Below, piece after piece: positions 1,975 to 30,550 of a DNA stretch of 64,000 bases; the first letter of the stretch is position 1, and each line of letters opens with the position of its first letter. Below the pieces are notes generated by a model that saw nothing but the letters and a program-made list of their open reading frames with translations, was not told the DNA's origin and searched no databases. The position numbers were made by a program, and so were the translations under genes. Where the stretch lies: the IMG/VR virus record IMGVR_UViG_3300045988_162372; one strand, given 5' to 3'. This DNA is from a virus.

Positions 1975-2313
1975 ATGATAGAAAAAGTTACAATTACTGA
2001 TAGTTTGCAAAAAGAAATATTAGTTAATAAAGATGTTAAATCATGGCTTGAAAAATTATCTGAAAAAATAGATATAATTGATAATATTCAAGAATTATAT
2101 ATTGATTATTCAATAACAAATAAAGCCATAAGAGCAGATATTTTGGTTAAGAATAATGTTCTTATAATGTTGAGACATATTATTGATGATGATAAGGATG
2201 ATATTGTTTCTTATTCAATATCTATCGGTAAGACAGTAATGGAAGTTAATTGGTGTGGTATAGAAAAATTAAATGATAAAATAAATGAAAACAAAAAGAA
2301 ATACAATTGGTGA
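1975..2313 (+). CDS. Hypothetical protein
   Basis: 112-aa ATG ORF in the same-strand array. Confidence 0.5.
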   Translation: MIEKVTITDSLQKEILVNKDVKSWLEKLSEKIDIIDNIQELYIDYSITNKAIRADILVKNNVLIMLRHIIDDDKDDIVSYSISIGKTVMEVNWCGIEKLNDKINENKKKYNW

Positions 2314-2749
2314 TGCAAGACATTACAAAGACGAAATCAAAGATTTAGTTGGGAAGAAACTGCCTATTTGCGTTGACTTTGATGGTTGTTTATGCGCTCA
2401 TCATTATCCAATGATAGGCAAAGAAAATAAACCATGTGTTGAAGTATTAAAGAAATGGCAAGAAAATGGAGTAGGCATCATTCTTGACACAATGCGTGAC
2501 GGTAAACAACTTGAAGAAGCTGTGCAATGGTGCAAGGATAGAGGAATTAAATTGTACGGTATAGGTAAAGAACCAGGACAAGAAAAGTGGACTACAAGCA
2601 ACAAATGTTATGGAATATTCAGTGTTGATGATAGAAATCTTGGAGTACCTTTGGTTATAGAAGAAGGCGAGAGGCCAAGAGTTGATTGGAAAAAGATTGA
2701 TGAGCTATATACAGAGCAAATTTTAGAAATGGCAAAACCATACAAGTGA
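2285..2749 (+). CDS. HAD-superfamily hydrolase-like protein
   Basis: ICVDFDGCL resembles HAD motif I (DxDxT/C); size and downstream ILDTMRDG are consistent with a small phosphatase. Confidence 0.45.
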   Translation: MKTKRNTIGDARHYKDEIKDLVGKKLPICVDFDGCLCAHHYPMIGKENKPCVEVLKKWQENGVGIILDTMRDGKQLEEAVQWCKDRGIKLYGIGKEPGQEKWTTSNKCYGIFSVDDRNLGVPLVIEEGERPRVDWKKIDELYTEQILEMAKPYK

Positions 2750-3360: not shown

Positions 3361-3885
3361 ATGCATCCGATAGTAGAATATATCAAGAATAGTTGGAAAG
3401 AACATAGGAATAATTCTGATAAAAAAAATACCTTTGCAGTCAATAGATACATATTCCCTCAAATAGTAGATATGCTATCTGATTGCAAAGATATTGCTTT
3501 CATTTCCATTGGTGAGACAAAAGATTGCATTGAATATAATAAGTTTGAGGATTATGGGCATTATCTTAAAGATAGTAAAAACGTATTGAATATTGACTTT
3601 GATGATTTAGAATGCGATTTTACTTTTGAAGGATACAACTTTAAAGCAATTACTGACGAACAAGCAGTACAGATATATGATTTTCTCATGAAACATTCGG
3701 ATAAACATATTATCTGTCATTGCAGGGCAGGAAAGAGCAGAAGTGCAGCAATTTCAGAGTTTCTTTTGCAGATGTTTTCTGACAAATATGAAGAATGTGA
3801 AGCGAACAGAATAAATAGTGATAAAACTCCAAACGGAGAAGTATTAAGAAAATTAAAAAGAATATATTATGAATACCCAAACTAA
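3361..3885 (+). CDS. Cysteine-based (dual-specificity/tyrosine) phosphatase
   Basis: IICHCRAGKSRSAAI is the HCx5R(S/T) P-loop signature of PTP/DSP phosphatases. Confidence 0.7.
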   Translation: MHPIVEYIKNSWKEHRNNSDKKNTFAVNRYIFPQIVDMLSDCKDIAFISIGETKDCIEYNKFEDYGHYLKDSKNVLNIDFDDLECDFTFEGYNFKAITDEQAVQIYDFLMKHSDKHIICHCRAGKSRSAAISEFLLQMFSDKYEECEANRINSDKTPNGEVLRKLKRIYYEYPN

Positions 3886-5829: not shown

Positions 5830-6624
5830 ATGGCACAGAGTGGTTTTAAGAAGATATTGGTTATTGGCGATAACCATGAACAGATAATAAAGAAATATTC
5901 TGCCGACACAAAGGTAGAAAAGTACGTTTATATGAAACGTGATGATGCCGAGAAGAATCAACGCAAATATTTGAAATATTTGGACACGCTGTTGAATAAC
6001 ACGGAAATCAAGCTTCCAGAATACCAGAGAGAGGTATACCAAGACCTTTATATGGATATCAAGGAAATGGATGATTTTGAATATTACCTTTATGCAACAA
6101 AAGGCTGTACTTATGACGAAGACAATGGTGATGCCTTGACTGATAAGAATCCTAATGCACATTATCAATATGAAAAATGTTATCAGAAATCTCTTTTGAA
6201 ATATGGAGAGGAAGGTGAAGGAACATTCTCCAATCCGTTTCATTTGTTGGACGGAAGCCTATCATATTCAGCAAAGAAAGAAGATATTGATTGGAGCGTG
6301 GAACATATGTACCATATTGATATATATGAAGCAGCTTGGGATATTGTAGTCAATGGACGTGAACCACAAAACAAACAGGAGGAAATCATAAAGAATAATA
6401 TGTCAAGAAAGCTCAATTACTTTATGAATTTCAAAAACAAGGATGAATATGTAAAACATTCTTGCTCATTCTGGTGTTATGGAGTTGCAACTGATAAGGA
6501 ATATATTGAAATGGACGGAACAACAGAAGACAAGCAGTGGGTTGCGAACTTTTATGACAGATTTATTGTTCCTCTTCCTGATGATACATTACTTACAATA
6601 TATGAAGCGAAATCGTTAAATTAA
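5830..6624 (+). CDS. Hypothetical protein
   Basis: 264-aa ATG ORF. Confidence 0.6.
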   Translation: MAQSGFKKILVIGDNHEQIIKKYSADTKVEKYVYMKRDDAEKNQRKYLKYLDTLLNNTEIKLPEYQREVYQDLYMDIKEMDDFEYYLYATKGCTYDEDNGDALTDKNPNAHYQYEKCYQKSLLKYGEEGEGTFSNPFHLLDGSLSYSAKKEDIDWSVEHMYHIDIYEAAWDIVVNGREPQNKQEEIIKNNMSRKLNYFMNFKNKDEYVKHSCSFWCYGVATDKEYIEMDGTTEDKQWVANFYDRFIVPLPDDTLLTIYEAKSLN

Positions 6625-7790: not shown

Positions 7791-9122
7791 ATGAAATTTG
7801 TAGAATTATTTGATAACGATATGAAACCAAAGTGGGATATAATAGAAAACATCCCACAGTTTGCAGCACTTAAGACAACCAAGCAAAGCAATACTTGGCA
7901 TAAAGAGGGTGATGCTCTTAGGCATACACGGCTTGTTGTTGAAAATATGCAAAGAGAATTGGATGAACAGAATATTGACAATCATTCTGCATATTATCTT
8001 GTAATGATGTCTGCCGCACTTTGTCATGACTTAGGCAAGGCAACTTCAACCAAATGGGATAAAGAGAAGAATGACTATGTATGTAATCATCATGGACAAG
8101 CAGGTGAGAATATTACCCGTATGTTGTTTTATGATGAGAAATTTATCATAAGGGAACTTGTATGCTATATGGTACGTTGGCATATGAATTTACATCATAT
8201 CTTGGATGATGAGGAAAAAGTTGATGAGAAACTGATAAATATGGCTCACGGATGGGTATCAATTCAAGATATGTTACTTCTCAACAAATGTGATTCTCTT
8301 GGAAGCCAGAATGACATTGAAACAAGAGAATTCCTTGAGAACAGATGGGATACCATTAAGGAAAGAGCAGAGAAGTTGGATGTATTTGATATGGTCTATG
8401 ATGATTATAATACGAAACATATATGTGAAAATCTGAATACTGCCCTAAATGCATCTAATCCAATTGCTCCATTTTCATTTATGACACTAAATTGGAGGGA
8501 TGTGCGAGAGTCTTGTAGTAATATATTGAGGCATACTCCTATAAATTGGAAAACAAATAATATAAAGATATTAAATCAATTCACTGTCTTTATGATGGTA
8601 GGTATTCCTGGAAGTGGTAAAGATACTATTATACGAAAATACTTAAATGATATTCCAACTGTATGTAGAGATGATATCCGCACTGAAATAGGTATTCAAG
8701 GAGAGAAGCCTATGGGTAATAAAGAACAGGAGAAGAAAGTGACTCAAATATTCGAGGAAAGAATGTTGGAATATTGCAAACAAGGTAAGAGTTTTGTTAT
8801 TAATAATACAAACCTTAAAAAGCAATACCGTAACAGATTCTTGGATATCATAAAGCCTTATAAACCAGTCGTGATTTATATTTATGTGGAAGCTCCGTCA
8901 ATAGTTGATAATTTTGCAAGACGTGCTGGACAAATAGATAAGGATATAATACGCAGGATGGCTTCAAACTTTGATTTCCCTTATCCTACGGAATATACTA
9001 CTTTGTGGCTCGATATACAAGGTGAACCACAATTCACTGAAATATATGGTAACGCAATGATGAGTCATATAATTCAAGATATGATGCAACCAAGAAAGAA
9101 GAAAGATGAACAAGAACATTAA
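7791..9122 (+). CDS. HD-domain phosphohydrolase fused to P-loop (polynucleotide-kinase-like) kinase
   Basis: N-terminal WHKEGDALRHT and AALCHDLGKA (HD motifs); C-terminal MMVGIPGSGKDT Walker A. Confidence 0.7.
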   Translation: MKFVELFDNDMKPKWDIIENIPQFAALKTTKQSNTWHKEGDALRHTRLVVENMQRELDEQNIDNHSAYYLVMMSAALCHDLGKATSTKWDKEKNDYVCNHHGQAGENITRMLFYDEKFIIRELVCYMVRWHMNLHHILDDEEKVDEKLINMAHGWVSIQDMLLLNKCDSLGSQNDIETREFLENRWDTIKERAEKLDVFDMVYDDYNTKHICENLNTALNASNPIAPFSFMTLNWRDVRESCSNILRHTPINWKTNNIKILNQFTVFMMVGIPGSGKDTIIRKYLNDIPTVCRDDIRTEIGIQGEKPMGNKEQEKKVTQIFEERMLEYCKQGKSFVINNTNLKKQYRNRFLDIIKPYKPVVIYIYVEAPSIVDNFARRAGQIDKDIIRRMASNFDFPYPTEYTTLWLDIQGEPQFTEIYGNAMMSHIIQDMMQPRKKKDEQEH

Positions 9123-9369
9123 TCTATTTGGTGAGGACATCACTAAAGAAATCGAAGCAGAGGAAAGGAAACATAAATATTCAGAAAGGGCTAAGAAAGC
9201 GGCCGAAACAAGGAAAAGACATAAGGCTGAACAAGAAGCCCTTTTTGATAAAATGTTCACCATTGCGAGAAGTGAATGTGATTTATTTGGTAATAAATAT
9301 ACCGACGAGGAAAGAAAAGAAGCTGAGAAATATATTAGGGAAAACTTTAAAAAAAGAAATAAGAAATGA
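9106..9369 (+). CDS. Hypothetical K/E-rich protein
   Basis: The ATG overlaps the upstream stop, and the end shares ATGA with the next gene. The alternative frame 9128..9394 lacks this coupling. Confidence 0.5.
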   Translation: MNKNINLFGEDITKEIEAEERKHKYSERAKKAAETRKRHKAEQEALFDKMFTIARSECDLFGNKYTDEERKEAEKYIRENFKKRNKK

Positions 9370-9785
9370 TAGTATCAGAAGAATTTTTGCTTGAGAAATT
9401 AAAAGGATACAAACAGAAAACTTGGTCAGGACATTGGACTAACAAGGGAAACATCCACTTTATTTTGTGGAATTTGTTAGGAATATTCAACGGACATTAT
9501 AATGTGGTTGTTAATCCAGAAACCTTTGAATATCGAGTTAAAAAGCATAGTGAATATGGTAATCTTGTTTCATACCTACCAACACAAGAAACAACCGTTT
9601 GGACAAAAGAAAATATGTCACAAGAACAAATAGATTATATTGAGCCTTGTATTGCCAAAACTTTGTATGATTTGCTATACCCTTCGATTTTTTCTTATAA
9701 TACAAAAGAAGGTTATTCCCAATGGTTATCCAATCTTCTTGTGGATGATGATACGTTTGAATTTACCTGGAAATGGCGAGAATAA
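9366..9785 (+). CDS. Hypothetical protein
   Basis: 139-aa ATG ORF, translationally coupled. Confidence 0.55.
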   Translation: MIVSEEFLLEKLKGYKQKTWSGHWTNKGNIHFILWNLLGIFNGHYNVVVNPETFEYRVKKHSEYGNLVSYLPTQETTVWTKENMSQEQIDYIEPCIAKTLYDLLYPSIFSYNTKEGYSQWLSNLLVDDDTFEFTWKWRE

Positions 9786-9802
9786 ATTAAAAAATATAAA
9801 AT

Positions 9803-10489
9803 ATGGAATATACTCTTGAAACAAGTTCAGAAACTTTTATTAATAAAATAAAAAAATTTCTTCATTATGGAAACATAATGATAGATTTGGAAACATTGTC
9901 TACCAGAACCAATGCATCCATAATAAGCGTTGCTGCCGTAGAATTTGGATTAAATGGTGATACTGGCAGGGAAATGATATTAAAAATCAAACCATCAGAA
10001 TGGGGAAAATATGATAGACATATTGATGGTAATACAATCGCATGGTGGATGGGACAAGATGCAGAGGCTGTTAAAAACCTTTTTGCAAAGGACGGGGAAG
10101 ATTTCACGTTGCTTGATGCCTTATCTCATTTGTCTGATTTTGTAAAAGAATGTGATATGCCTATACCAATTACGCAAGAACAAGAAATGACTGCCAGTTT
10201 TATGAGCAGTTTCAGATACAGTGATGTAAAAGACAAAAGGATTAAAGTATGGGGAAATGGTTCTACAATGGATATTACAATTCTTCAATCTGCTTATGAG
10301 TATTTCAATATGCAGATACCGTGGCAATATTGGGCTGTAAATGATGTGCGTACTATTGTGGATTTAAACCCTGAAATTAAAAAGAACTGTACTTTTGAAG
10401 GTGTGAAACATAATCCTATTGACGATTGTAATTATCAGATTAAATATATGACTGAAACAATTAAAAATATTAGAGAAAATAGATATTAA
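9803..10489 (+). CDS. DEDD-family 3'-5' exonuclease (DnaQ/exoribonuclease-like)
   Basis: MIDLETLS (Exo I), WGNGSTMDI (Exo II) and HNPIDDC (Exo III, DEDDh). Confidence 0.75.
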   Translation: MEYTLETSSETFINKIKKFLHYGNIMIDLETLSTRTNASIISVAAVEFGLNGDTGREMILKIKPSEWGKYDRHIDGNTIAWWMGQDAEAVKNLFAKDGEDFTLLDALSHLSDFVKECDMPIPITQEQEMTASFMSSFRYSDVKDKRIKVWGNGSTMDITILQSAYEYFNMQIPWQYWAVNDVRTIVDLNPEIKKNCTFEGVKHNPIDDCNYQIKYMTETIKNIRENRY

Positions 10490-10545
10490 TTTTTTTTACA
10501 AAAATTATATGTTGAAAATATTTTCGCATTAAAAAATTTAAAAAT

Positions 10546-10983
10546 ATGGCACTTTTGAAACTTATAGTTTATGCATTGTTAATTTGTACTGGGGTAATAG
10601 GGTTAATTTGCTTCGGATACTATTTATTATTCATCTTAAAAACTAATTTCGCAGAAACAAGAAAATATTTGGATCAATTTCCTGATAAATTTAAAAATTA
10701 TACTGATGAATATCATTCTTATTGTAATGGTGATATTCTAATACACTTATATGATAATAGGGATACAAAACGTTTGTACAATAGATATACAGTTACGATT
10801 GAATATAATTTATTGGGTTACATTATATATAATGATGCTATTAATATAATACGAGTACCGTATCCGTTTTTCAAAAAGGAAAGAAAGTGGCTTAATAATT
10901 TATTTAGACAAAAATATGAAAGAGTTAAAAAGCAAGAGATGAAAGAAATGAACAAATTAATAGAAGTAATGAAAAATAATTAG
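10546..10983 (+). CDS. Hypothetical membrane-anchored protein
   Basis: N-terminal hydrophobic helix LLKLIVYALLICTGVIGLICFGYYLLFIL; ends with TAG. Confidence 0.55.
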   Translation: MALLKLIVYALLICTGVIGLICFGYYLLFILKTNFAETRKYLDQFPDKFKNYTDEYHSYCNGDILIHLYDNRDTKRLYNRYTVTIEYNLLGYIIYNDAINIIRVPYPFFKKERKWLNNLFRQKYERVKKQEMKEMNKLIEVMKNN

Positions 10984-10987
10984 AAAT

Positions 10988-11215
10988 ATGGAAAAGAAAG
11001 AACTAAACGAACACAATGAGTGTTATTATTGCAAACTCATGTACCGTATTCCTGGTGATGCGCATATTGGTTGTAAGAAGTTTTGTGAAGGTAATAAATT
11101 TAATGCACATGGCATTAGATGTGGATGGGTCGTAATTATGCCGATGCTTGACCTTTGCAATTTTGATCCTGTGTGGAAAGAAACCATGTGTCCGAATTTT
11201 GAAGAAAATAAATAA
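10988..11215 (+). CDS. Hypothetical Cys-rich protein
   Basis: 75-aa ORF with 8 Cys, including CYYC. Confidence 0.45.
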   Translation: MEKKELNEHNECYYCKLMYRIPGDAHIGCKKFCEGNKFNAHGIRCGWVVIMPMLDLCNFDPVWKETMCPNFEENK

Positions 11216-11235
11216 AACATTAAAATCATACAAAC

Positions 11236-11826
11236 ATGAAAAAGTTAAAAGAATGTTATAATTTGTATATTAACGAATGTATTGATAAAGATGCACTTAA
11301 AAGTCTGAATGAAGATATTATCAAGTATACAACGGAGATTGAGGAGATTTTATGTGAAAATGAGAATGAATTAAGAAGTTGTGGATATCCTATTCCAGAT
11401 AGAAATAATGTCACTAAACCTATTTTCTATCTTCACATAAATACTTTTGGCGGTTCTGTATATGACGGTCTTGGAATATACAACATCATCAGGAAATTGT
11501 CAGAAGATTATAAAGTCATCGCCTATTGTCGTGGCTATATCATGTCTATGGGTATTCCTATTATCCTTGCTGCGACAGAACGTTATTCATACCCTGATAC
11601 CACGTTTATGATACATGAAATAAGTAGTTTCTATTGGGGGAAATTGACTGAGGCAAAAGAAAACCTGCAAGAAATTGAACGTCTAAACAAAGCTATATGT
11701 GATATTATTGTTAGACACACTTCAATTACACAAGATATGTTGGATGATTGGTATAAACATAAGAAAGATGTGTTTATGTCGGCACAACAAGCACTTGATT
11801 ATAAGTTGATTGATAAAATACTCTAA
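11236..11826 (+). CDS. ClpP-family (S14) serine protease
   Basis: INTFGGSVYDGLGIYN, CRGYIMSMGIPI (catalytic Ser context) and TFMIHE (His) match the ClpP fold order. Confidence 0.75.
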   Translation: MKKLKECYNLYINECIDKDALKSLNEDIIKYTTEIEEILCENENELRSCGYPIPDRNNVTKPIFYLHINTFGGSVYDGLGIYNIIRKLSEDYKVIAYCRGYIMSMGIPIILAATERYSYPDTTFMIHEISSFYWGKLTEAKENLQEIERLNKAICDIIVRHTSITQDMLDDWYKHKKDVFMSAQQALDYKLIDKIL

Positions 11827-11854
11827 TCAGTTATATTTTTTTAACGAAATATAT

Positions 11855-11885
11855 TTTGGTATAATTCTCTAATGTTGTACATTTG
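11855..11885 (+). promoter_or_regulatory. Bacteroidota-type promoter
   Basis: ATATTTTGG with TTTG at 11855-11858, a 19-nt gap, then TACATTTG at 11878-11885, upstream of the ATG at 11922. Confidence 0.7.
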
Positions 11886-11921
11886 CAATGTGAATAATAA
11901 AATACATATTGTAAATTAAAA

Positions 11922-12161
11922 ATGGAAAACAATGTTAGAGAATTTTTGGTATTGGAAGGTTATACAAATGATTTGTTGATGATAAATTCTTCAGGCTCAA
12001 TGAAAATGACAAGACTTATCAAGCTTGACCCAAACAATAAAGAATTGGATGAAGAAATTGTGGATATTGCTGTTACATCAACAAATGAATATGGAACGCA
12101 TCCGTTATTTGATGAGTTGCTTGGAAAGAAAATAAGATTAAAGGTAGAAATTTTGAAATAA
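11922..12161 (+). CDS. Hypothetical protein
   Basis: 79-aa ATG ORF behind a promoter. Confidence 0.55.
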   Translation: MENNVREFLVLEGYTNDLLMINSSGSMKMTRLIKLDPNNKELDEEIVDIAVTSTNEYGTHPLFDELLGKKIRLKVEILK

Positions 12162-12176
12162 TAAAAAGAGAATTGA

Positions 12177-13043
12177 ATGGCAATAAACCTTTTAAAAATT
12201 AACGCAGAAGCCGTACTATGTACGGGTGATTTGCATGGAAACCTGAATAGCATTGGATACCAGATTAAACAGTTTGGTATCCAAAATTCAGTTCTGATAT
12301 GTTGTGGGGATATTGGATTAGGCTTTAATAAGTTGGAATATTATAAACAATACTTGAATAAGTTGAAGAAGGTATTGACCAAATATAATGATTATGTCAT
12401 TCTTCTTAGGGGTAATCATGATGATAAGGCGTATTTCGACAATAAGCTCATTAATGATAAAAGGATTAAGGCGGTTTCTGATTATACAATAGTGCAGGTA
12501 TATCCTATGGATGATACAGAATGCCTTTCTCTTCCATACAATGTGTTATGTGTCGGTGGAGCTACCTCAATTGACAGAATGCACAGAATTAGTGTAAACA
12601 ACAAACTGTTGATGGAATATTCCAAACATCATAATATGGAAACTTTGGAGGAAGCAAAAAAGAATTGTCTGAAATGTTATTGGGAAGACGAAGCACCTGT
12701 ATATGATGAAGAGACACTGAATGAGATTAAGGAACAAGGAATTACCATTGATGCTGTAACAACACATACTTGTCCATCTTTCTGTCAACCATTGACTAAG
12801 GATGGCATTCGATATTGGATGCAGTTTGACACTAATCTTGAAAAAGATATTGACAATGAACGCAACGTGATGGATAAACTTTATGATAAGTTGATAGAGG
12901 ATAAACACCCATTATCTGTATGGTGTTATGGCCATTATCATTATCATCATAATGACAGTATTAATGGAATAAGATATTACCTCCTTGATATGGAGAGAAA
13001 TGGAAAGATGGATATAATAACGATATATAAAAGTGGAAAATAA
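12177..13043 (+). CDS. Metallophosphoesterase (Ser/Thr-phosphatase-like)
   Basis: Motifs GDLHGN, CCGDIGLG, LRGNHDD and YGHYHYHH. Confidence 0.75.
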   Translation: MAINLLKINAEAVLCTGDLHGNLNSIGYQIKQFGIQNSVLICCGDIGLGFNKLEYYKQYLNKLKKVLTKYNDYVILLRGNHDDKAYFDNKLINDKRIKAVSDYTIVQVYPMDDTECLSLPYNVLCVGGATSIDRMHRISVNNKLLMEYSKHHNMETLEEAKKNCLKCYWEDEAPVYDEETLNEIKEQGITIDAVTTHTCPSFCQPLTKDGIRYWMQFDTNLEKDIDNERNVMDKLYDKLIEDKHPLSVWCYGHYHYHHNDSINGIRYYLLDMERNGKMDIITIYKSGK

Positions 13044-13347
13044 GATAGATTATAAAGAACAAATATTTCAGTTAAAGCATTTGCATCAACAAACAGGACA
13101 AGTAATTGATAAAATGTCGTTGTTGGAAATAGATGCAGAACATATGTATGCAAGAAACATTCTTTATCTATTATTTTCAATAATGAGGAAGAATTTGAAT
13201 ACATTGGATGAGTTTTTGCAAATACTAAATGACATAGAACATGAACAAGAGGAAGGACATAAACTTATCAAACGAATATACTCTAAAACTTGGTTCGCAA
13301 ATTCTTCTGGGATAGAAATTTCAAATGATAACGAGACAAAAACTTAA
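13033..13347 (+). CDS. Hypothetical protein
   Basis: GTG start overlapping the upstream end; start uncertain. Confidence 0.45.
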   Translation: MENKIDYKEQIFQLKHLHQQTGQVIDKMSLLEIDAEHMYARNILYLLFSIMRKNLNTLDEFLQILNDIEHEQEEGHKLIKRIYSKTWFANSSGIEISNDNETKT

Positions 13348-13353
13348 TATATA

Positions 13354-13887
13354 ATGAAAGGAATAATTGCAATAAAAAATATATCGGATGTAATCACAAA
13401 TTCTTCAAGCGAAGTGTTTATGTTACAAACTGATGGTGTCATTAAAGGTATTAAAAATAACATTGAAAAATATCACAATGAACATATGTGGTATCACAAC
13501 GATTTTTCTGAACTTCCTGATGATATTAAACAGCTATTAGGCGGTGAGGATATTTTAAATGAAGCGGAAAAAATGCTCAATGAATCTTCTGGCGAAGGTG
13601 GAGAAATTAACATTTATGATTGGGAGGACGCATATAACGGATATTGCAAAATATACAAAAAACATTCCAAGAGTTTCACACCCGAACAGTGGGCAAAAAA
13701 AATTGATATACCATTGGAAGAATTGAAGAAAATCATTGTGGTTGATGTGGATTGGGCAGCTAAAAGTACTATCTCCATGTTAAAAGAACGTTATAATGTT
13801 GTCTTTGAAGGAGATATTTATTACGAATCAAAATATAGTGATGCCTTTGCGTATGCTTCCTATGCTAACGGAGAAAACTATCTATAA
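13354..13887 (+). CDS. ITNSS-motif paralog family protein (member 1 of 5)
   Basis: N-terminus is IKNISDVITNSSSEVFML, a motif shared with the ORFs at 16231, 17823, 18242 and 18667. Confidence 0.7.
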   Translation: MKGIIAIKNISDVITNSSSEVFMLQTDGVIKGIKNNIEKYHNEHMWYHNDFSELPDDIKQLLGGEDILNEAEKMLNESSGEGGEINIYDWEDAYNGYCKIYKKHSKSFTPEQWAKKIDIPLEELKKIIVVDVDWAAKSTISMLKERYNVVFEGDIYYESKYSDAFAYASYANGENYL

Positions 13888-13902
13888 CAAAAATTTTTGA
13901 AT

Positions 13903-14580
13903 ATGAAACACTACGATTCTATTCCAAGTATCAAAGAGGACAAATCTTTGGTCGGAGAAAATATTTTTGCTTTTAATAAATTGGACGGACAAAACTTCTG
14001 TGCAAAATATTCTCCAAAAGTGAATGAATTTACAATGTTTGGCAGTAGAACACAAAATGTGGATGAAACTTCCGAACAATTCGGAGATGCTGTTAGATAT
14101 TTCAAAGCTAACTTGGAGACACCGTTGAAAGAAGTTATTAAAAATAACAAAGGGAAAAATCAAATCTTTCATGGTATTGAAGAGATAACATTTTTCTTTG
14201 AATGGTATGGTGAGCATAGTTTTGCTGGTTTTCATCAGCCTAATGAAACATTAAAACTTGCATTAATAGATGTTTTTTTGAAAAAGAAAGGTTATATTGA
14301 GCCTAAAATATTTGTTGATATATTCTATGATAATCCATCAATAGAAACACCATTATTGGTATATAGTGGAAAATTGACAAATGATTTCATAAAGGCAATT
14401 CAAGAAAATGACTATACAGAAGCAAATTGTAACTTAAATGAGGTAAAAGAAGGCGTTGTCTGCAAACGTTCAACACTTCTGAAAGGGCAAAGACTTCCAA
14501 TGGTAAAGATTAAAACACAATGGTGGCTTGATAAATTGCATAGCACATTCTCAGAAGAACAATGCAAGAAATTAGAATAA
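13903..14580 (+). CDS. ATP-dependent RNA ligase (small, Rnl-type nucleotidyltransferase)
   Basis: FNKLDGQNF (motif I, KxDG), FFFEWYGE (III), EGVVCK (IV) and VKIKT (V). The track start 13897 is TTG; the ATG is at 13903. Confidence 0.7.
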   Translation: MKHYDSIPSIKEDKSLVGENIFAFNKLDGQNFCAKYSPKVNEFTMFGSRTQNVDETSEQFGDAVRYFKANLETPLKEVIKNNKGKNQIFHGIEEITFFFEWYGEHSFAGFHQPNETLKLALIDVFLKKKGYIEPKIFVDIFYDNPSIETPLLVYSGKLTNDFIKAIQENDYTEANCNLNEVKEGVVCKRSTLLKGQRLPMVKIKTQWWLDKLHSTFSEEQCKKLE

Positions 14581-14622
14581 GATAATAAAAAGGATTTATT
14601 AACAATTAAAATTGAATATAAT

Positions 14623-16167
14623 ATGACAAAAGAAATTTTCACGCTGTCAGAAAATGCGAAACTGGAATATTCTTGTACAGTAGTTCAAATTGGGGAAGTA
14701 AAACCTGTTGAAGGTTCAGACTTTCTTGGTTCAACACTAGTAAATGGTAATCCTATAGTTGTGCGCAAAGACCAAATCAAGGAGGGTGATATAATGATAT
14801 ATGCCCCTATTGAAACTGTGCTTAACAAACAATTTCTCTCTGTAAACAACCTATTTGAAATTGGAGAAAAAGAACTGAATTCAAATTTTAAGGAAGTTCA
14901 AGCACTTATCAATGAGGGAAAGAAAGAAGATGCTAAGAAAAAGGTGGGCTTCTTTAATAAGCATGGTCGTGTGAAGCTTATCCGCTTGCGTGGGTGTCCG
15001 TCTATGGGTTTCCTTATTGAAAAGGAGTCACTTGTAAAGTGGAAACCTAAGTTGCAGGACGTTGATTTCTCTCAATACGTGGATAAGGACTTTGATACCA
15101 TTGATGGGGAACTCTTTGTCAAGGTATATGTGCCTTATGTACCACCTATAAGAACAAGGGATAAATCAGCAAAACGAGACAAGAAATTAAAAAGATTTTC
15201 AAGACTTATTGAAGGTGAATTTAAGTTTCATTACGATACACAACAACTTGCTCGTAACATTCATCTGATTAAGCCAGATGATAAAGTGTTAATAACCAAC
15301 AAATTACATGGCACGAGCTTCATTTGCGCTAACATATTGACAAAGAAACCTGTTCAGCTTTCCAACATTCAAAAGCTCTTTAACAAGATGTCTAATAAAA
15401 AGATTAAGAAGTTAAAAAAGCAGAATGCTACTCACTATGCAGATAAGAAAAGATTGGAAAATCAAATCAAGCAGTATGAAAAGATTAAGAGACCTACATA
15501 TACTGTCGGATATGGTAATATCTATTCTTCTCATACTGTCATTAAAAATCAGTATATTAATAGTGGTGTAAATAGTGGCTTCTATGGAGTGGATATTTGG
15601 GGAGTATACGATAAGATTATGAAACCTTATATTCCACAAGGTATGACGTTGTATGGCGAAATCTGCGGTTATCTTGACGCTACTGGCAAGATGATACAGA
15701 AGGGTTACGACTATGGCTGCAAAGTAGGCGAAAATTTTTTGATGCCGTATCGTATCACCACTACAAAAGAAGACCATACTAAGAAGGAATGGACTGTGAA
15801 AGAGGTATATGATTGGACTGTCAAACTCTTGAAAGAACATCCTGAATTAAAAAAGAATGTAAGACCTATTACAATTCTTTACAGTGGTACATTAAAGGAC
15901 TTGTATCCAGAAATTAGTGTTTCTGATCATTGGCATGAGAATGTTCTTGAAACTATGAGAAATGATAAGGAACATTTCGGAATGGAAGAGCTTGAACCTG
16001 AATGTATCAATAAAGTTCCGAGAGAAGGAATTGTCTTGAGAATTATGGAAGACCCTGTGGCTGAGGCATTTAAGTTGAAGAGTTTCCGCTTTCTTGACAG
16101 AGAGAGGTCTGAAATGGACAAGGGACAAGTTGATATGGAAATGGCTGATGCCTACACTGAACAATAA
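14623..16167 (+). CDS. RNA ligase with N-terminal OB-like domain
   Basis: NKLHGTSF (motif I variant), LYGEICG (IIIa), EGIVLR (IV) and FKLKS (V). The N-terminal part is VVQIGEVKPVEGSDFLG... Confidence 0.65.
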   Translation: MTKEIFTLSENAKLEYSCTVVQIGEVKPVEGSDFLGSTLVNGNPIVVRKDQIKEGDIMIYAPIETVLNKQFLSVNNLFEIGEKELNSNFKEVQALINEGKKEDAKKKVGFFNKHGRVKLIRLRGCPSMGFLIEKESLVKWKPKLQDVDFSQYVDKDFDTIDGELFVKVYVPYVPPIRTRDKSAKRDKKLKRFSRLIEGEFKFHYDTQQLARNIHLIKPDDKVLITNKLHGTSFICANILTKKPVQLSNIQKLFNKMSNKKIKKLKKQNATHYADKKRLENQIKQYEKIKRPTYTVGYGNIYSSHTVIKNQYINSGVNSGFYGVDIWGVYDKIMKPYIPQGMTLYGEICGYLDATGKMIQKGYDYGCKVGENFLMPYRITTTKEDHTKKEWTVKEVYDWTVKLLKEHPELKKNVRPITILYSGTLKDLYPEISVSDHWHENVLETMRNDKEHFGMEELEPECINKVPREGIVLRIMEDPVAEAFKLKSFRFLDRERSEMDKGQVDMEMADAYTEQ

Positions 16168-16230: not shown

Positions 16231-16740
16231 ATGAAGAAAATTAACATTAAATCATTGACGGACGTGATTACAAACTCTTCGACAGAGATATTCACAATCT
16301 ATAATAAAGAGGCTGTTAATAAAATCAAACAGATGGTTAATTCTATACTTGCGCTGAGTGACGCTACTTCTAATCTGACATTCGATGACTTGTTTGAGGT
16401 TGATTATCGTCTTTACGATTATGGAACGGGAGAACTTATCATAAATCTTGTAGAAAAACTGAAAGAAAAAGGCTATATAGAACATGCAGAAGCTATCAAT
16501 GCTACCGTTACAACGGAAGAAGAATTGTGGAACTATTCCAAACAAAACAATATCTATGATGTTGTTATGGAAATTATCGAAAAAATTGATGATGATAATT
16601 ACGACGATTACCGTATAATAGATGGTATTCATATCAAAGCCAAAAATAATCCTAATGTGGATAAAGCAAAACTTGACAAGGCGGTTGATATGCTTAATAA
16701 CATCGACCACATCTTTGAACAATACGCTTCTTATTGCTAA
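16231..16740 (+). CDS. ITNSS-motif paralog family protein (member 2 of 5)
   Basis: IKSLTDVITNSSTEIFTI at the N-terminus; acidic C-terminal half. Confidence 0.7.
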   Translation: MKKINIKSLTDVITNSSTEIFTIYNKEAVNKIKQMVNSILALSDATSNLTFDDLFEVDYRLYDYGTGELIINLVEKLKEKGYIEHAEAINATVTTEEELWNYSKQNNIYDVVMEIIEKIDDDNYDDYRIIDGIHIKAKNNPNVDKAKLDKAVDMLNNIDHIFEQYASYC

Positions 16741-16745: not shown

Positions 16746-16876
16746 AAAATCACAGTGCATTGTGATTTTTGAAGAAATAAGATAATTTTGAAACATTGTT
16801 GAGTATAAAATTCACATTACAGTGTGATTTTGCATTAATTAACGTCAAATATTTGCATATGTCAGATATTTGACGT
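16746..16876 (+). promoter_or_regulatory. Cluster of three inverted repeats in an intergenic region
   Basis: AAAATCACA-N6-TGTGATTTT (16746-16769). TCACA-N6-TGTGA again at about 16812-16827. ACGTCAAATAT-N13-ATATTTGACGT (16842-16876). Confidence 0.5.
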
Positions 16877-17822: not shown

Positions 17823-18224
17823 ATGAAAAAGATTATTAAGAACGTATCAGATGTGATTACGAATTCTTCCAGTGAAGTTTTCGTGATGAATAAAGAAGAT
17901 GCTTGTGAAATTGCGCTCTTCGATAAAGACAATGAAACCTATGATTGTATTTCAATTCATAAGATGGATGAGAATTGGGTGAGAACACAAGGAAGTTGGG
18001 AAGCACAAATGATTTGCGACCTTCTTAAAATTAACAATCCATTCAATGAGAATTTCTATCCAGATGAAGATGATTGGTCTGAATTTGTAGATGAACATTT
18101 GGATGATATGAAAGAGAATGTATTTGGAAAATACTACATAGACATTGAAGACCATTTTGCTAATGCGGAAGAAATCCTTGAATTTTCAAGAAGCCATTGT
18201 GAATGGTCTGACTATAGACATTAA
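17823..18224 (+). CDS. ITNSS-motif paralog family protein (member 3 of 5)
   Basis: IKNVSDVITNSSSEVFVMNKEDA; strongly acidic; collinear with member 4. Confidence 0.7.
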   Translation: MKKIIKNVSDVITNSSSEVFVMNKEDACEIALFDKDNETYDCISIHKMDENWVRTQGSWEAQMICDLLKINNPFNENFYPDEDDWSEFVDEHLDDMKENVFGKYYIDIEDHFANAEEILEFSRSHCEWSDYRH

Positions 18225-18241: not shown

Positions 18242-18652
18242 ATGAAACAATGTTTTATAATTAAATCAATCAGTGATATCATTACGAACTCGTCTTCCGA
18301 AGTTTTTGTTTTGAACAAGGAAGATGCAAGATATTTTGCAATACGTTCATTTGATGAAGATACTTGTGATTGTATTTCAGTTACTAAAATGGACTATGGT
18401 TGGATATACGAACTAGGACGTTTTGAGACAGAAATTTTCCAAACATTGCTTGGGATAGCTGACGAGTTATTGTCCAGAGATACTACACCAACAGAAGAAG
18501 AGTGGAATGCTTTTTGTTTGAAATATTCGGATGAAATAGAAGAAAAGGTACTTAACAAATACATTATTGAAATCGAAGATCATTACCTTAATGCAATTGA
18601 AGAAATTGATAAGGCACGTGATAAATGTTTATATTATGAGAACTTACACTAA
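18242..18652 (+). CDS. ITNSS-motif paralog family protein (member 4 of 5)
   Basis: IKSISDIITNSSSEVFVLNKEDA; shares CDCIS..KMD and IEIEDH..NA.EEI blocks with member 3. Confidence 0.7.
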   Translation: MKQCFIIKSISDIITNSSSEVFVLNKEDARYFAIRSFDEDTCDCISVTKMDYGWIYELGRFETEIFQTLLGIADELLSRDTTPTEEEWNAFCLKYSDEIEEKVLNKYIIEIEDHYLNAIEEIDKARDKCLYYENLH

Positions 18653-25589: not shown

Positions 25590-26714
25590 TTATTTCACCA
25601 TTGCCGTCATTGCCGACTCAAGCTCTTTTTCAACCTTAATGATTTCTTCTTCCGTTGCTTTCCTATTTTTGGTTGCTTCCTCATGGATTGCTTGTACTTC
25701 TTTCAGCGTTTCGATGAGTCTTGCAGTAGTGGTACGCAGGGTTTCCACATCAACGACACTTCTTTCACTTTCTTTAGCAACATATATACTGTTTTGTTTC
25801 AAAAGTTCAGAATTCTTCAAAAGAATTTGATTAGTAGTATCACTGATTTTCTTCTGTGCATCAATGTTATTCTTCTGATTGTTCAACGCAACAGCAATTG
25901 ATAGCTGGTTTCTCCACACTGGAATTGTTGTGGAAATAATGCTTTGAGCTTTGTCTGCAACTGAAAGATTGTTATACTGTACAGTTCTAATCTGTGGAAG
26001 TGATTGTTTGATGACATATCTAAGTGTAAACATATCATTCAAACGCCTTTCAAGATTATTCTTGAACACTTGTGTATCTTGTATCTCAGTGGCAGTATAT
26101 TTGTCAGGATTCTGTTCCATATCTTGAATGGAACTTTCTAATTCTTCTACCTTTATCTTTCCTGCGATGATAAGTTCCTCAATCTGTTGACCATATAGAA
26201 TATTATTATCGAACATAACCTGCAAGGCATTATTATCACGTAAAGCAAGCATTCGCATTGCAGTAATCTTCTTGGATATTTCATCCACGTTCTGTGCAAT
26301 GCTGTCATATTTCTTCATTATCTTTTCAACTGATTTTACTAAATTCTTCAAAATAGGTATTCTACTGAGGAATTTCTTGATAGGTGATATATCCTCAAAA
26401 TCATCAAGCTCAACATAGCCAAGTTCAGTAAGTAAGTTGTCCACCAATGTGCCGATTTCTCCACACTTTGATGTCCTTACAGCATTCAAGAAATCATTGG
26501 AATACTTCGTCATAGAAGTCTGCAAATCAGAGCCAAAACTTGATACCGAGTTAATGTCTTTGACGACAAGACAAGAATTCAATCTGTTATATTTAGCTTT
26601 TTCCTCTTCTGTTAAGTTTGCAAGATTAATCTCTCCGTTCTCGCTTACTCTTTTTACCAATGCATTAGTAACTATTTTCTCTTTGTTTTCGATATTGTTG
26701 TTGTTATTTTCCAT
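25590..26714 (-). CDS. telA: TelA/YaaN-like toxic-anion-resistance family protein
   Basis: LTEEEKAKYNRL...VSSFGSDLQTSMTKYSNDFLNAVRTSKCGEIGTLVDNL parallels the TelA N-terminal region; 374 aa is the typical length. Confidence 0.7.
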   Translation of the reverse strand: MENNNNNIENKEKIVTNALVKRVSENGEINLANLTEEEKAKYNRLNSCLVVKDINSVSSFGSDLQTSMTKYSNDFLNAVRTSKCGEIGTLVDNLLTELGYVELDDFEDISPIKKFLSRIPILKNLVKSVEKIMKKYDSIAQNVDEISKKITAMRMLALRDNNALQVMFDNNILYGQQIEELIIAGKIKVEELESSIQDMEQNPDKYTATEIQDTQVFKNNLERRLNDMFTLRYVIKQSLPQIRTVQYNNLSVADKAQSIISTTIPVWRNQLSIAVALNNQKNNIDAQKKISDTTNQILLKNSELLKQNSIYVAKESERSVVDVETLRTTTARLIETLKEVQAIHEEATKNRKATEEEIIKVEKELESAMTAMVK

Positions 26715-27459: not shown

Positions 27460-28257
27460 TTATTTTCTGATTATATCCAATAGCTTTTCCCTGTTATATT
27501 CGTCATTCAATACAAAAGCATCATGCTCAGTCCATATATTCCTTATATATGTCAAGTTCAATTCTTCATTGACTTGTCTAACTTCTTCCTTGTATATAAA
27601 ACGTCCATATTTCTTCCCATCTGAAAAATCAGTATTCCAGTCAATACCTTTCTTTTCTTTTAGAAGTGCAATCTGTTCATCAGTATTCAAATTGAGAAGT
27701 TCTTTATGGGAAAGATATGTTTGTGCTGCCTGTTGTTTTGAATTTTTAATGCAGTCATTCTGTCTATAGAGACACCACGCAAACATATCGTTTTCGTTTG
27801 GTACATTCCAAGCCTTGCAATCAAATTCAACAAGTTTCTGGCCTTCTACCATCTGTATCATATCACTTTGTGAACAAGGCGTATTCAATAAATCCATTGT
27901 TACCATATGATTGAACTTTGATGCTGCCATAGCTGCTGCGATTGACTGCAATTTGCATAAGCGATATCCGAAGAACGTATCAGTTGTTGGTGTGTCAAAA
28001 TCAGATAATGCCATAGTAATTTCATCTGATTGCACATACGCAAATTTGCATCCGCCAATATTCTTGCAAAGATACTTGGCGGTTTCATTCATATAATGAA
28101 TAAACTTGTTATCAAATGGTTTTTCATACTTATTTTTAATCAATTTTGAGAATGCTCTTCCGTCAAGCATCATTATTACATACTGATTAGGCACAAGCCT
28201 ATAATCTGACAAACTCCTATAATATAAACATTTATCTTCTAGATTCTTAAAATTCAT
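27460..28257 (-). CDS. Thg1-like protein (tRNA-His guanylyltransferase / 3'-5' polymerase family)
   Basis: MLDGRAFSKL...KPFD...FAYVQSDEITM...RLCKLQSIAAAMAASKF follows the Thg1 core motifs. Confidence 0.75.
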   Translation of the reverse strand: MNFKNLEDKCLYYRSLSDYRLVPNQYVIMMLDGRAFSKLIKNKYEKPFDNKFIHYMNETAKYLCKNIGGCKFAYVQSDEITMALSDFDTPTTDTFFGYRLCKLQSIAAAMAASKFNHMVTMDLLNTPCSQSDMIQMVEGQKLVEFDCKAWNVPNENDMFAWCLYRQNDCIKNSKQQAAQTYLSHKELLNLNTDEQIALLKEKKGIDWNTDFSDGKKYGRFIYKEEVRQVNEELNLTYIRNIWTEHDAFVLNDEYNREKLLDIIRK

Positions 28258-29941: not shown

Positions 29942-30550
29942 CTAATCTCTCCACAATTTATTATCGACAATAAATTTCCTAACCTTATCAGGAACATAAA
30001 AGTTTATAGTCTTACCCTGCCTTATTTCTCTTCTGATAAATGTTGAACTCAGGTTTGAAAGAGGACAATTATGCAATATCTTTATATTTTTGATATTGTA
30101 TTTGTTTTCCAAATTATTTATTTCTTTCTCGCAATCAATATTACCTCTTGGGATAACAATAATATTAACCATTGATAACAATTCATCAATTTTGTACCAA
30201 TTATCCAACTGTTTCACATTATCAGCACCAACAATCAGAGAGAACTCCACATTATAAGACAATTCCTGTAATTTTTTAACTGTATTATAAGTATATGTCG
30301 GTCTTGATAACATTTCTTCAATGTAAGAATAAGACATTCGTCTATTTTCGATATCACAAATAGATAACTCAATCATGTTACATCTCATACTGAAATCTGC
30401 TAATTCGTTACCAGTATATTTAAATGGTGCATCTGGGCTTGGTATAAATAATACTTTGTCAACATTAGCATTGTTTAATACATAGTTAGCGATCATTAAA
30501 TGCCCGTTATGAATAGGATTAAATGTTCCGATAAATAAAGCTGTTGTCAT
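29942..30550 (-). CDS. nadD: Nicotinate/nicotinamide mononucleotide adenylyltransferase
   Basis: FIGTFNPIHNGHL (the (T/H)xGH motif) and the C-terminal SSTFIRREI (ISSTxxR). Confidence 0.85.
   Translation of the reverse strand: MTTALFIGTFNPIHNGHLMIANYVLNNANVDKVLFIPSPDAPFKYTGNELADFSMRCNMIELSICDIENRRMSYSYIEEMLSRPTYTYNTVKKLQELSYNVEFSLIVGADNVKQLDNWYKIDELLSMVNIIVIPRGNIDCEKEINNLENKYNIKNIKILHNCPLSNLSSTFIRREIRQGKTINFYVPDKVRKFIVDNKLWRD

Follow-up and report, generated by a model that had tools for sequence, protein, structure and literature searches.

What task would bring an RNA end-healing kinase, an exonuclease, a phosphoesterase and two RNA ligases together in one phage genome? The question is raised by a 64,000-nucleotide stretch of viral DNA (IMG/VR record IMGVR_UViG_3300045988_162372; this whole 64-kb stretch is referred to here as the window), in which an earlier note, made from the letters alone, had pointed to five such enzymes between positions 7791 and 16167. 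All five open reading frames (ORFs) are present there on the + strand, with the domains named in the note and with intact catalytic motifs (Table 1). We read them as an end-healing and sealing cassette of a Lak-like megaphage, which most likely repairs broken RNA, chiefly tRNA, during infection, and we put the probability of this reading at about 0.6.

Judged by its proteins, the source of the window is a Lak-like megaphage. The smaller of the two ligases, hereafter the mini ligase, is 63-64% identical to copies in all 15 Lak-A/B/C genomes and in Lak_Megaphage_Sonny, and a 359,564-bp metagenomic scaffold (L006 in our numbering of related loci) is collinear with the window at 90-99% protein identity. 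A near-identity DNA search of the region against deposited phage records gave no match. The G+C content of the window is about 31%, and genes lie on the + strand until about 23 kb and on the - strand beyond. Lak phages can recode TAG or TGA. Recoding of either codon was considered for the window and rejected, given that 12 ORFs end in TAG and that readthrough adds little; the standard genetic code holds in the window.

The first enzyme of the cassette, HD-Pnk, joins an HD domain (PF01966, 2e-6, residues 74-138) to an AAA_33 kinase domain (PF13671, 1.4e-14, residues 266-396). By sequence, the nearest solved relatives of the kinase are T4 Pnk, the kinase of Clostridium thermocellum CthPnkp and Pnkp1, and the nearest named relative of the HD domain is that of the multifunctional CCA addition/repair protein. 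Residues H45, H79-D80, G271..K277, R293-D294..R297 and R377-R378 are invariant in 24 homologues down to 38% identity, with H101, H131 and D168 kept in at least 90% of them; the R293-D294..R297 stretch (RDDIR) occupies the positions of T4 Pnk Asp35 and Arg38. From these conserved catalytic residues, the protein is predicted to be a 2',3'-phosphoesterase and 5'-kinase. In a profile comparison (hhalign), it matched Deinococcus radiodurans DR_B0098 with a probability of 99.3% (E 1.9e-20, 342 columns over both domains). The HD plus kinase architecture recurs in nearly all of the 120 homologues listed, the exceptions being a few fragments or variants without an HD match, and a search of cellular genomes returned three full-length matches, all in Bacillota, along with many HD-only (mostly CCA-adding enzymes) or kinase-only matches; Runella was not among the matches.

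The two enzymes that follow would act on 3' ends. The DEDDh exonuclease matches PF16473, the family of Rv2179c-like 3'-5' exoribonucleases, over profile positions 2-175 of 177 (3.7e-42, 144.5 bits against a 27-bit cut-off) as well as phrog_255 (1.8e-51), and carries the DEDDh motifs D28-x-E30, D157 and H203-x4-D208. The calcineurin-type metallophosphoesterase has the complete metal-binding motif set (D18-x-H20, G44-D45, G79-N-H-D82 and G252-H-x-H255), and its motifs make it a candidate end-healing enzyme for 2',3'-cyclic or 3'-phosphates.

By fold and profile, the larger ligase is an Rnl5-type enzyme, a divergent and enlarged member. Rnl5 enzymes are defined by an N-terminal OB module followed by the nucleotidyltransferase domain (PMC7261155); the large ligase has a PHA02142 OB-fold match (PF21189) at residues 19-69 and a PF09414 match in its C-terminal half, and also matches phrog_968 (1.7e-37). 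KLHG lies at residues 227-230 and EGIV at 468-471, and K227, E346, E468-G469, K484 and K486 (motifs I, III, IV and V) are invariant in 30 homologues, as is E64 of the OB domain, which aligns with the Asp in 'EID' of NgrRnl; Rnl5 enzymes have an acidic OB-domain residue in contact with the metal complex. Removing the OB domain from NgrRnl impairs its adenylylation (PMC7261155). We favor the Rnl5-type assignment because the AlphaFold2 model (predicted local distance difference test score, pLDDT, 85) matches the whole of Naegleria NgrRnl in Foldseek (E 4e-15, TMt 0.63; next family 1.6e-6) and because profiles match both NgrRnl (3.9e-5 against its sequence) and DraRnl (hhalign 94.6%, E 6.5e-8, from the OB domain through motif I, with KLHGT common to both). 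The score against TIGR02306 (RNA_lig_DRB0094; 2.2e-9, 36.7 bits) is far below the 151-bit equivalog cut-off, and the large ligase therefore represents a divergent Rnl5 subfamily. Two large insertions separate motif I from motif III and motif III from motif IV.

A separate observation concerns motif I in a close relative, L005 (ENA ERZ24773548 NODE_203, 87 kb), where the gene for a 94-97% identical Rnl5-type ligase (7933-10969) is a 'fractured gene'. The N-terminal part of the ligase ends in ...NKLHG and runs into an intein N-half that starts with Cys, followed by a separate 341-aa ORF, possibly a homing endonuclease, and then, in another frame, by an intein C-half that ends in HN and continues as TSAIFANVL... 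The insertion lies exactly within motif I, between G230 and T231.

The mini ligase is a nucleotidyltransferase domain alone (PF09414 RNA_ligase, 1.3e-7), without the C-terminal domain that defines Rnl2. KLDG (residues 26-29) and EGVV (183-186) are invariant in 30 homologues, and the columns K26-x-D-G, E100, E183-G and K202-x-K204 stay invariant even at 31-45% identity. The AlphaFold2 model (pLDDT 94) shows the nucleotidyltransferase fold with two short helices and ends about 20 aa past motif V. The top Foldseek matches in the PDB were TbREL1, T4 Rnl2, T4 Rnl1 and NgrRnl, ahead of DNA ligases, with Rnl1, Rnl5 and Rnl3 scoring nearly as well as REL1 and T4 Rnl2 (TMq 0.56-0.63); the top 50 included no capping enzyme, and the viral fold neighbours in BFVD are mostly labelled RNA ligase 2. 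Sequence and profile searches against solved structures found no match, nor did a tblastn search of plasmids. Members of this family are 195-230 aa long, align end to end, form 629 clusters at 50% identity and are widespread in viral contigs. In T4 Rnl2, the nucleotidyltransferase domain by itself is able to self-adenylylate and to seal pre-adenylylated nicks, but is not known to carry out the whole of nick sealing.

A cellular counterpart is suggested by D. radiodurans LigB (DR_B0100), which at 210 aa has a PF09414 match (5.6e-33), no flanking domain and the same architecture as the mini ligase. The mini-ligase family matched LigB with an hhalign probability of 63.7% (E 6.7e-5, 145 columns), and the two have an N-terminal YPSI, KLDG and EGxVV in common. 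The corresponding value was 62.6% for Deinococcus sp. KNUC1210 and only 2.3% for a 286-aa Pseudomonas aeruginosa protein; LigB against the Rnl5-like family gave only 3.3%. From sequence and model, we describe the mini ligase as having a possibly Rnl2-like fold, a LigB-like size and architecture, and moderate similarity to LigB.

In 7 of 45 loci (L089, L101, L102, L104, L108, L129 and L130; 38 of the 45 were scanned for tRNAs), the mini ligase is followed by a tRNA-Cys(GCA) gene at a distance of about 0.7-2.2 kb. Five of the seven are 84-97 nt long and have a long extra arm in their predicted fold, an unusual feature in tRNA-Cys. The idea that they are intron-bearing tRNAs in need of a ligase was rejected; ARAGORN shows the long extra arm and no anticodon-loop intron.

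The two ligase genes are separated by 42 nt. As the earlier note had proposed, both classify by sequence and model as RNA ligases, not DNA ligases or capping enzymes, with the motif I lysine kept in 30 homologues of each. Origin by tandem duplication was rejected, the hhalign probability between them being below 1% and the lineages unrelated. The note had also spoken of redundancy. This description does not fit two unrelated ligases that each have their own counterpart in one bacterial locus, an arrangement that suggests a division of labour within one pathway.

That bacterial locus lies on the D. radiodurans megaplasmid MP1, where DraRnl (DR_B0094, the founding Rnl5), a 228-aa frameshifted DEDDh exonuclease (DR_B0095), HD-Pnk (DR_B0098), PARG (DR_B0099) and LigB are encoded within 6 kb. 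From these similarities, the MP1 region is the closest characterised system, rather than the T4 pair of Pnk and Rnl1 that the earlier note had chosen for comparison; the nearest characterised homologues, HD-Pnk, DraRnl and LigB of Deinococcus, are tied by experiment to recovery from DNA damage (PMC6300522, PMC5397189). Four of the five MP1 enzyme types occur together in the phage: HD-Pnk, an Rnl5-type ligase, a nucleotidyltransferase-only PF09414 ligase and a 228-aa DEDDh exonuclease. PARG, in contrast, is not in the window, and the phage has an additional calcineurin-type phosphoesterase; its Rnl5-type ligase has 514 aa and two insertions compared with 342 aa in the bacterium, and its genomic neighbourhood is tRNA-related, in contrast to the radiation-resistance phenotype of Deinococcus. 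We rejected the phage exonuclease as an orthologue of DR_B0095: the two belong to PF16473 and PF00929, respectively, have no pairwise similarity and are only analogous. In tblastn searches of plasmids, the large ligase was too divergent to find DraRnl. As read from the gene content, enzyme types that Deinococcus divides between two neighbouring operons are brought together in the phage cassette, in a single run of genes with the same orientation. In the literature searched, we found no description of the collinear cassette or of its correspondence to the Deinococcus LigB/HD-Pnk and Rnl/exonuclease genes.

The link between a small ligase and HD-Pnk extends beyond MP1. A small 'RNA ligase family protein' abuts or overlaps HD-Pnk on plasmids of another Deinococcus and of P. 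aeruginosa, and a small ligase is linked to HD-Pnk in Runella too (PMC6097658). The Runella slithyformis cluster has four genes, for a ligase-like protein, HD-Pnk, Tpt1 and MTase-HIT (PMC6097658). Compared by this published description, the shared features are the small ligase-like gene linked to HD-Pnk and, in the phage locus L001, a Tpt1 that accompanies the ligases, whereas neither Tpt1 nor MTase-HIT was found in the window.

Deinococcus offers a more exact comparison than T4 Pnk/Rnl1 or Pnkp/Hen1. The cassette lacks the defining architectures of both of these. The predicted chemistry of the cassette is that of the T4 pair (5' phosphorylation, 3'-phosphate removal and ATP-dependent sealing), and the phage kinase keeps the P-loop Lys, the Asp35 and Arg38 equivalents in RDDIR and an Arg near position 126. 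However, its phosphatase is an N-terminal HD domain, not the C-terminal HAD domain of T4 Pnk, and no HAD domain is present in the kinase protein; neither phage ligase has the Rnl1 C-terminal domain, and genes for an exonuclease and a metallophosphoesterase are added. With Pnkp/Hen1, the cassette shares a kinase, a calcineurin-type phosphoesterase and a ligase. In that system a single fused polypeptide with an Rnl4-type ligase carries all three activities, which depend on the Hen1 2'-O-methyltransferase, whereas they are on separate polypeptides in the phage, and no Hen1 or methyltransferase match was found among window ORFs of at least 100 aa.

RNA repair in large phages has been described before. 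A study of jumbo phages listed several non-redundant ATP-dependent RNA ligases, Pnk, HD, calcineurin and HAD-SAK phosphatases, RlaP, CCA-adding enzymes and Thg1 (Iyer et al. 2021, PMC7824862), an account that draws on an earlier survey by Burroughs and Aravind. The logic and most of the parts match the cassette and the other repair-type genes of the window; the survey concerns co-occurrence per genome rather than a defined collinear cassette, and the kinase described here has an HD instead of a HAD phosphatase. XacN1, credited with three Rnl2 paralogues (PMC7824862), carries a mini-ligase homologue. For Lak phages themselves, Devoto et al. noted an RNA ligase, Thg1 and a CCA enzyme and suggested a role of this kind for them, with tRNA repair proposed for the ligase (bioRxiv 10.1101/356790).

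The cassette is conserved in divergent relatives. In L008, whose proteins are 43-62% identical, a stretch of about 5 kb holds, side by side, the genes for HD-Pnk, the exonuclease, the 79-aa ORF of Table 1, the phosphoesterase, the mini ligase and the Rnl5-type ligase. Both L008 and L011 also encode a CCA-adding enzyme and YqeY, some 9 kb upstream of HD-Pnk. The exonuclease adjoins HD-Pnk in L006, L007, L008, L011 and L012, and the phosphoesterase is syntenic in L006-L011. The mini ligase is in the same cassette as HD-Pnk in L006, L008, L009/L010, L105-L106, L109 and L111-L112, and the two are adjacent, about 400 nt apart, in L118. The 79-aa ORF is found directly upstream of the phosphoesterase orthologue in L006-L011, L105-L106, L109 and L111-L112 (44-96% identity), and the 264-aa ORF of Table 1 directly upstream of HD-Pnk in L006, L007, L008 and L011 (51-97% identity).

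We also examined linkage across IMG/VR, with co-localisation judged by a crude random-placement model that ignores the relatedness of loci. Another repair-type gene lies within 10 kb in 11 of the 13 huge-phage loci with a full-length HD-Pnk: an Rnl5-type ligase in eight, RlaP and YqeY in three each, and Thg1 and a CCA-adding enzyme in two each. The pairing of HD-Pnk with an Rnl5-type ligase (8/13 loci against 2.0 expected, P ~1e-4) is stronger than that of the mini ligase with an Rnl5-type ligase (12/45 against 7.1 expected, P ~0.03), though in five of those 12 loci the two ligases are within 100 nt. In other phages, a stand-alone Pnk-type kinase is often preceded, at a distance of 1-2.5 kb, by an Rnl5-type ligase. 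The order of the genes is reshuffled from one lineage to another. From these arrangements, we regard the cassette as a set of frequently co-travelling genes that was consolidated in particular lineages, not as an obligatory operon.

Insertions of IS605/TnpB (Cas12f-like) elements were seen in and around the cassette of relatives, not in the window (L006 5938-7137 and 20255-21227; L007 12750-14424 and 18962-20200; L003 16008-17294). One of those in L007 lies between a 145-aa ORF, which follows the exonuclease, and the ClpP-like gene.

How might these enzymes act together? Having computed domain identities, catalytic residues, fold classes, homology to Deinococcus HD-Pnk and DraRnl, and gene linkage, we infer the RNA substrate, the order of steps and a part in counter-defence. 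The kinase domain of HD-Pnk would phosphorylate 5'-OH ends, and the HD domain, the calcineurin-type phosphoesterase or both would open and remove 2',3' or 3' phosphates, while the DEDDh exonuclease would trim damaged 3' ends. ATP-dependent ligation would proceed via lysyl-AMP, formed on K227 of the large ligase and K26 of the small one. Where structured RNA is base-paired, nick-like breaks would fall to the Rnl5-type enzyme for sealing, and the LigB/Rnl2-like mini ligase would serve a distinct step or substrate in the same pathway. Elsewhere in the window, RlaP, the CCA-adding enzyme, the Thg1-like enzyme and SAK-type phosphatases would rebuild lost terminal nucleotides. The healing, trimming and sealing chemistry is proposed because of established knowledge of the families together with the conserved residues, and the action of the large ligase on base-paired breaks because characterised Rnl5 enzymes, which are Mn-dependent, seal duplex nicks with RNA on the 3'-OH side and a 5'-phosphate.

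We consider RNA the likeliest substrate, since the genes that recur in phages near HD-Pnk and the ligases encode tRNA/RNA enzymes (RlaP, CCA-adding enzyme, Thg1, YqeY and HAD-SAK, plus TROVE and Tpt1 (PTS_2-RNA) near the ligases in L001), in line with the published jumbo-phage scheme (PMC7824862). RlaP, whose family adds 1-2 nucleotides to damaged RNA 3' ends (PMC12776372), adjoins HD-Pnk in L016, L018 and L020. Thg1 is near HD-Pnk or ligases in L001, L012, L017, L113 and L114. In L001, L008 and L011, no more than a few hundred bases separate YqeY from the CCA enzyme or the Rnl5-type ligase; in L012 and L018 its distance to that ligase is 1.7-5 kb. A second metallophosphoesterase is encoded upstream of HD-Pnk in L006, L007, L011 and L017. 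The Thg1, CCA-adding, PF10127 (RlaP) and YqeY genes that the earlier note had placed elsewhere in the window are real by their Pfam matches; of its two HAD phosphatases, the HAD_SAK_2 protein stands, while the other is a weak candidate (Table 1).

By analogy with the phage literature, counter-defence against host ribonucleases is the most likely role of such RNA repair, as already proposed for jumbo phages (PMC7824862 section 3.4.9). The earlier note had gone further, to defence against several tRNA- or RNA-targeting host nucleases acting at the anticodon loop, the 3' CCA and the 5' end; counter-defence agrees with the published view, but tRNA substrates and the countering of several different nucleases are not supported. 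Repair of the 3' CCA, in particular, is not needed to account for the CCA-adding enzyme, because none of the 25 tRNA genes in Lak-like relatives (L001, L090, L096, L097, L118 and the tRNA-Cys loci) encodes a 3' CCA, and the enzyme may simply mature phage tRNAs.

A stronger form of the proposal is possible, although we hold it only tentatively and lean against it. The cassette may be the phage edition of the bacterial LigB/HD-Pnk and Rnl5/exonuclease system, with four enzyme types serving one pathway and one substrate, in which case the phage context would point to broken structured RNA or tRNA as the substrate of LigB, Rnl5 and HD-Pnk. The mini ligase would then work with HD-Pnk and the Rnl5-type ligase, for example by handling its own kind of end or by relying on a partner supplied in trans, much as ligases of the editosome bind RNA by means of a partner protein (PMC3413154).

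Several observations weigh against RNA repair by the cassette. A tRNA scan and an Rfam scan of the window found no tRNA gene and no Rfam RNA. The synteny expected by the earlier note is borne out by collinearity in divergent relatives but not in the Lak-A/B/C genomes, where roughly 40 kb separates the two ligases and HD-Pnk was not found. No repair-type neighbour lies within 10 kb in 15 of the 45 mini-ligase loci, and tblastn with window proteins, which may be too insensitive, found almost no repair genes at 73 distant mini-ligase loci outside Lak-like phages. LigB-type and Runella ligase-like proteins self-adenylylate but ligated no tested substrate (PMC5397189, PMC6097658). Because of this result and the impairment of nucleotidyltransferase-only ligases, the role of the mini ligase is the least certain step, and the enzyme may need a partner or an end type not yet tried. 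The remaining points concern DNA. By sequence, the nearest solved relative of the exonuclease is 8kel (3.4e-6), deposited as an exodeoxyribonuclease. DraRnl accepts DNA in the 5'-phosphate and template strands, and mutants lacking DraRnl or the Deinococcus HD-Pnk are sensitive to ionising radiation, with rnl loss delaying genome reconstitution (PMC6300522 section 12; PMC5397189); the HD-Pnk (DR_B0098) mutant is also sensitive to mitomycin C. These are the only genetics for the families, and the same enzyme types sit within the MP1 region, with homology of HD-Pnk and Rnl5 and moderate similarity of LigB. The cassette could accordingly repair breaks in DNA or at RNA-DNA hybrid junctions, as the Deinococcus homologues appear to do, with ribonucleotide-terminated nicks from replication or recombination, or breaks made by host nucleases, being healed by HD-Pnk, resected by the exonuclease and sealed by the Rnl5-type ligase at 3'-OH ribonucleotides. 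Such a role would suit the Runella HD-Pnk, a DNA/RNA end-healing enzyme by the title under which PMC6097658 cites it, as well as the SSB and RecB-like ORFs within 10-12 kb, the latter recognised by eye only and without a Pfam match. We nevertheless regard it as unlikely: what recurs nearby in phages is tRNA/RNA enzymes rather than genes of replication or recombination, Rnl5 enzymes strictly require RNA on the 3'-OH side (PMC5397189), and the physiological substrates of the Deinococcus enzymes were left open by their authors (PMC6300522, PMC5397189).

If RNA is the substrate, the enzymes could still serve routine maturation or quality control of the phage's own tRNA set, by CCA addition, 5'-end completion and possibly joining of tRNA halves once introns are removed, rather than answer an attack by the host. 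The 25 tRNA genes without an encoded CCA would fit, as would the roughly 30 tRNAs of Lak phages, some reported with introns, for which Thg1 and the CCA enzyme have been listed as maturation factors (10.1101/356790); Tpt1 near the ligases in L001 recalls fungal-type splicing by kinase, cyclic phosphodiesterase, ligase and Tpt1 (PMC6379707, PMC6097658). Yet ordinary bacterial tRNA maturation needs no kinase/phosphoesterase, exonuclease and two ligases, the long tRNA-Cys genes have an extended extra arm in place of an anticodon-loop intron, the single tRNA-His found (L001) has a genome-encoded G at -1 opposite C73, and the window contains no detected splicing endonuclease and no tRNA genes, which together make this explanation improbable. 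It is more improbable still that the clustering has no functional meaning and that accessory genes of nucleotide metabolism were acquired independently in a variable region. Unrelated genes are indeed interspersed (a ClpP-like protease, a membrane protein and small ORFs), relatives carry IS605/TnpB insertions, the order is reshuffled and the genes are dispersed in Lak-A/B/C. Against this, the same set is contiguous in the divergent L008, HD-Pnk and an Rnl5-type ligase recur together in unrelated huge phages far above rough chance, and the same enzyme types are linked in Deinococcus, with the small ligase overlapping or abutting HD-Pnk in Deinococcus, Pseudomonas and Runella (PMC6097658). We therefore retain repair of broken RNA during infection as the preferred reading.

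Within the cassette, the repair enzymes are only five of about 13 ORFs and are not strictly contiguous; a ClpP-like protease and seven small ORFs without a family match are interspersed. L006 and L007 retain the ClpP-like gene, which L008 lacks; head maturation proteases are its best PHROG matches, although it is far from any structural genes seen. Four paralogous small ORFs with a common N-terminal 'SD(V/I)ITNSS(S/T)E(V/I)F' motif include one immediately before the mini ligase and one immediately after the large ligase. The ligase has flanking copies in L005 and L006 as well, but L008 has none. The hairpin of Table 1 is the only strong terminator-like site on the + strand between 5.5 and 17.5 kb, by consensus match only. 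A Sigma-70 promoter scan gave no enrichment over shuffles, this consensus not being applicable to Bacteroidota-type promoters.

Further genes of the window are collected in Table 1. The CCA-adding enzyme matches TIGR02692 (1.4e-74, below the equivalog cut-off), and the Cys-phosphatase-like protein has weak, below-cut-off matches to DSPc (0.0016) and PTP-SAK (0.0072). Two genes are NAD-related, and NAPRTase and ADP-ribosylglycohydrolase genes occur between the two ligases in relatives (L005 3385-5487; L008 18950-20128). A Cys-rich protein has a short, sub-threshold match to the tRNA-wybutosine methyltransferase TYW3. The best solved relatives of an adenylosuccinate-synthetase-like protein are ordinary PurA; its PHROG label may correspond to PurZ, which makes 2-aminoadenine DNA. 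A complete diversity-generating retroelement is also present, in which a template repeat (TR) pairs with a variable repeat (VR) at the 3' end of the target gene and all 20 mismatches fall at template adenines. Three cell-type genes lie on the - strand.

Table 1. Features of the window, in order of position.
Feature	Coordinates	Strand	Matches and remarks
Weak 'HAD' candidate	2285-2749		LNS2 E=0.01; phrog labelled phosphoheptose isomerase
Cys-phosphatase-like protein	3361-3885	+	HCRAGKSRS P-loop; phrog_5614 2.5e-19
Second metallophosphoesterase, 214 aa	4042-4686	+	PF00149 9.3e-8; phrog_547 1.7e-46
264-aa ORF, possible accessory part	5830-6624	+	no Pfam or PHROG match
HD-Pnk, 443 aa	7791-9122	+	N-terminal HD phosphoesterase and C-terminal P-loop 5'-OH polynucleotide kinase (predicted)
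DEDDh 3'-5' exonuclease, Rv2179c-like, 228 aa	9803-10489	+	PF16473
ClpP-family protease, 196 aa	11236-11826	+	between exonuclease and phosphoesterase
79-aa ORF	11922-12161	+	no Pfam or PHROG match
Calcineurin-type metallophosphoesterase, 288 aa	12177-13043	+	PF00149 1.5e-11; phrog_1649 1.2e-20
SD(V/I)ITNSS-motif ORF	13354-13887	+	no Pfam or PHROG match
Mini RNA ligase, 225 aa from ATG	13903-14580	+	nucleotidyltransferase domain only
Rnl5-type RNA ligase, 514 aa	14623-16167	+	N-terminal OB and C-terminal nucleotidyltransferase domain
SD(V/I)ITNSS-motif ORF	16231-16740	+	no Pfam or PHROG match
Terminator-like hairpin	16842-16876	+	14-bp stem and T-run; after the ORF following the large ligase
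SD(V/I)ITNSS-motif ORF	17823-18224	+	no Pfam or PHROG match
SD(V/I)ITNSS-motif ORF	18242-18652	+	no Pfam or PHROG match
TelA-like toxic-anion-resistance protein	25590-26714	-	9e-83
Thg1-like 3'-5' nucleotidyltransferase	27460-28257	-	PF04446 3.1e-24; phrog_4717 1.5e-52
NadD-like cytidylyltransferase-fold protein	29942-30550	-	NAD-related
Cys-rich protein, 372 aa	31101-32219	-	TYW3 4.6e-5, profile positions 13-49 only
HAD_SAK_2 phosphatase	38329-38817	-	PF18143 2.7e-20; 'Swiss Army Knife' RNA-repair HAD family
Diversity-generating retroelement	40533-45354	-	complete
Reverse transcriptase of retroelement	40533-41738	-	
TR of retroelement, 123 nt	41859-41981	-	pairs with VR
bAvd-like gene of retroelement	42153-42542	-	
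Target protein of retroelement, 880 aa	42712-45354	-	DUF285/BspA-type repeats
VR of retroelement	42729-42851	-	
Isochorismatase/nicotinamidase-like protein	47094-47975	-	NAD-related
Adenylosuccinate-synthetase-like protein, 353 aa	53049-54110	-	phrog_1211 '2-aminooxy adenylosuccinate synthetase' 1.7e-35
YqeY-like protein	55685-56143	-	PF09424 1.3e-24; adjacent to CCA-adding enzyme
CCA-adding enzyme with HD domain	56781-58178	-	PolyA_pol, PolyA_pol_RNAbd, HD
RlaP Pol-beta-type nucleotidyltransferase	59072-60403	-	PF10127 1.7e-22; phrog_388 1.6e-51
DUF2400 protein	61739-62473	-	1.8e-69
OmpA-family protein	62846-63919	-	signal-peptide-like N-terminus

The concept of phage RNA repair is known and the parts come from known families, so that the cassette as such is no surprise. 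Its value is that five conserved genes present, in compact form, a system that in bacteria has resisted functional assignment: Rnl5 physiology has been described as 'uncharted', LigB is without a known substrate and HD-Pnk without a known natural target. It also provides a set of small proteins for reconstitution, including a 225-aa ligase. The hosts are presumed to be Prevotella, rich in RNA-targeting defences, which makes the cassette a candidate determinant of megaphage success in the gut. The presence of the same enzyme types beside tRNA-end-rebuilding enzymes in megaphages gives a concrete, testable hypothesis on what these families repair, and if the single-pathway proposal is true, the phage context (RlaP, CCA-adding enzyme, Thg1, YqeY, TROVE and Tpt1) would reveal the long-sought substrate of LigB, Rnl5 and HD-Pnk.

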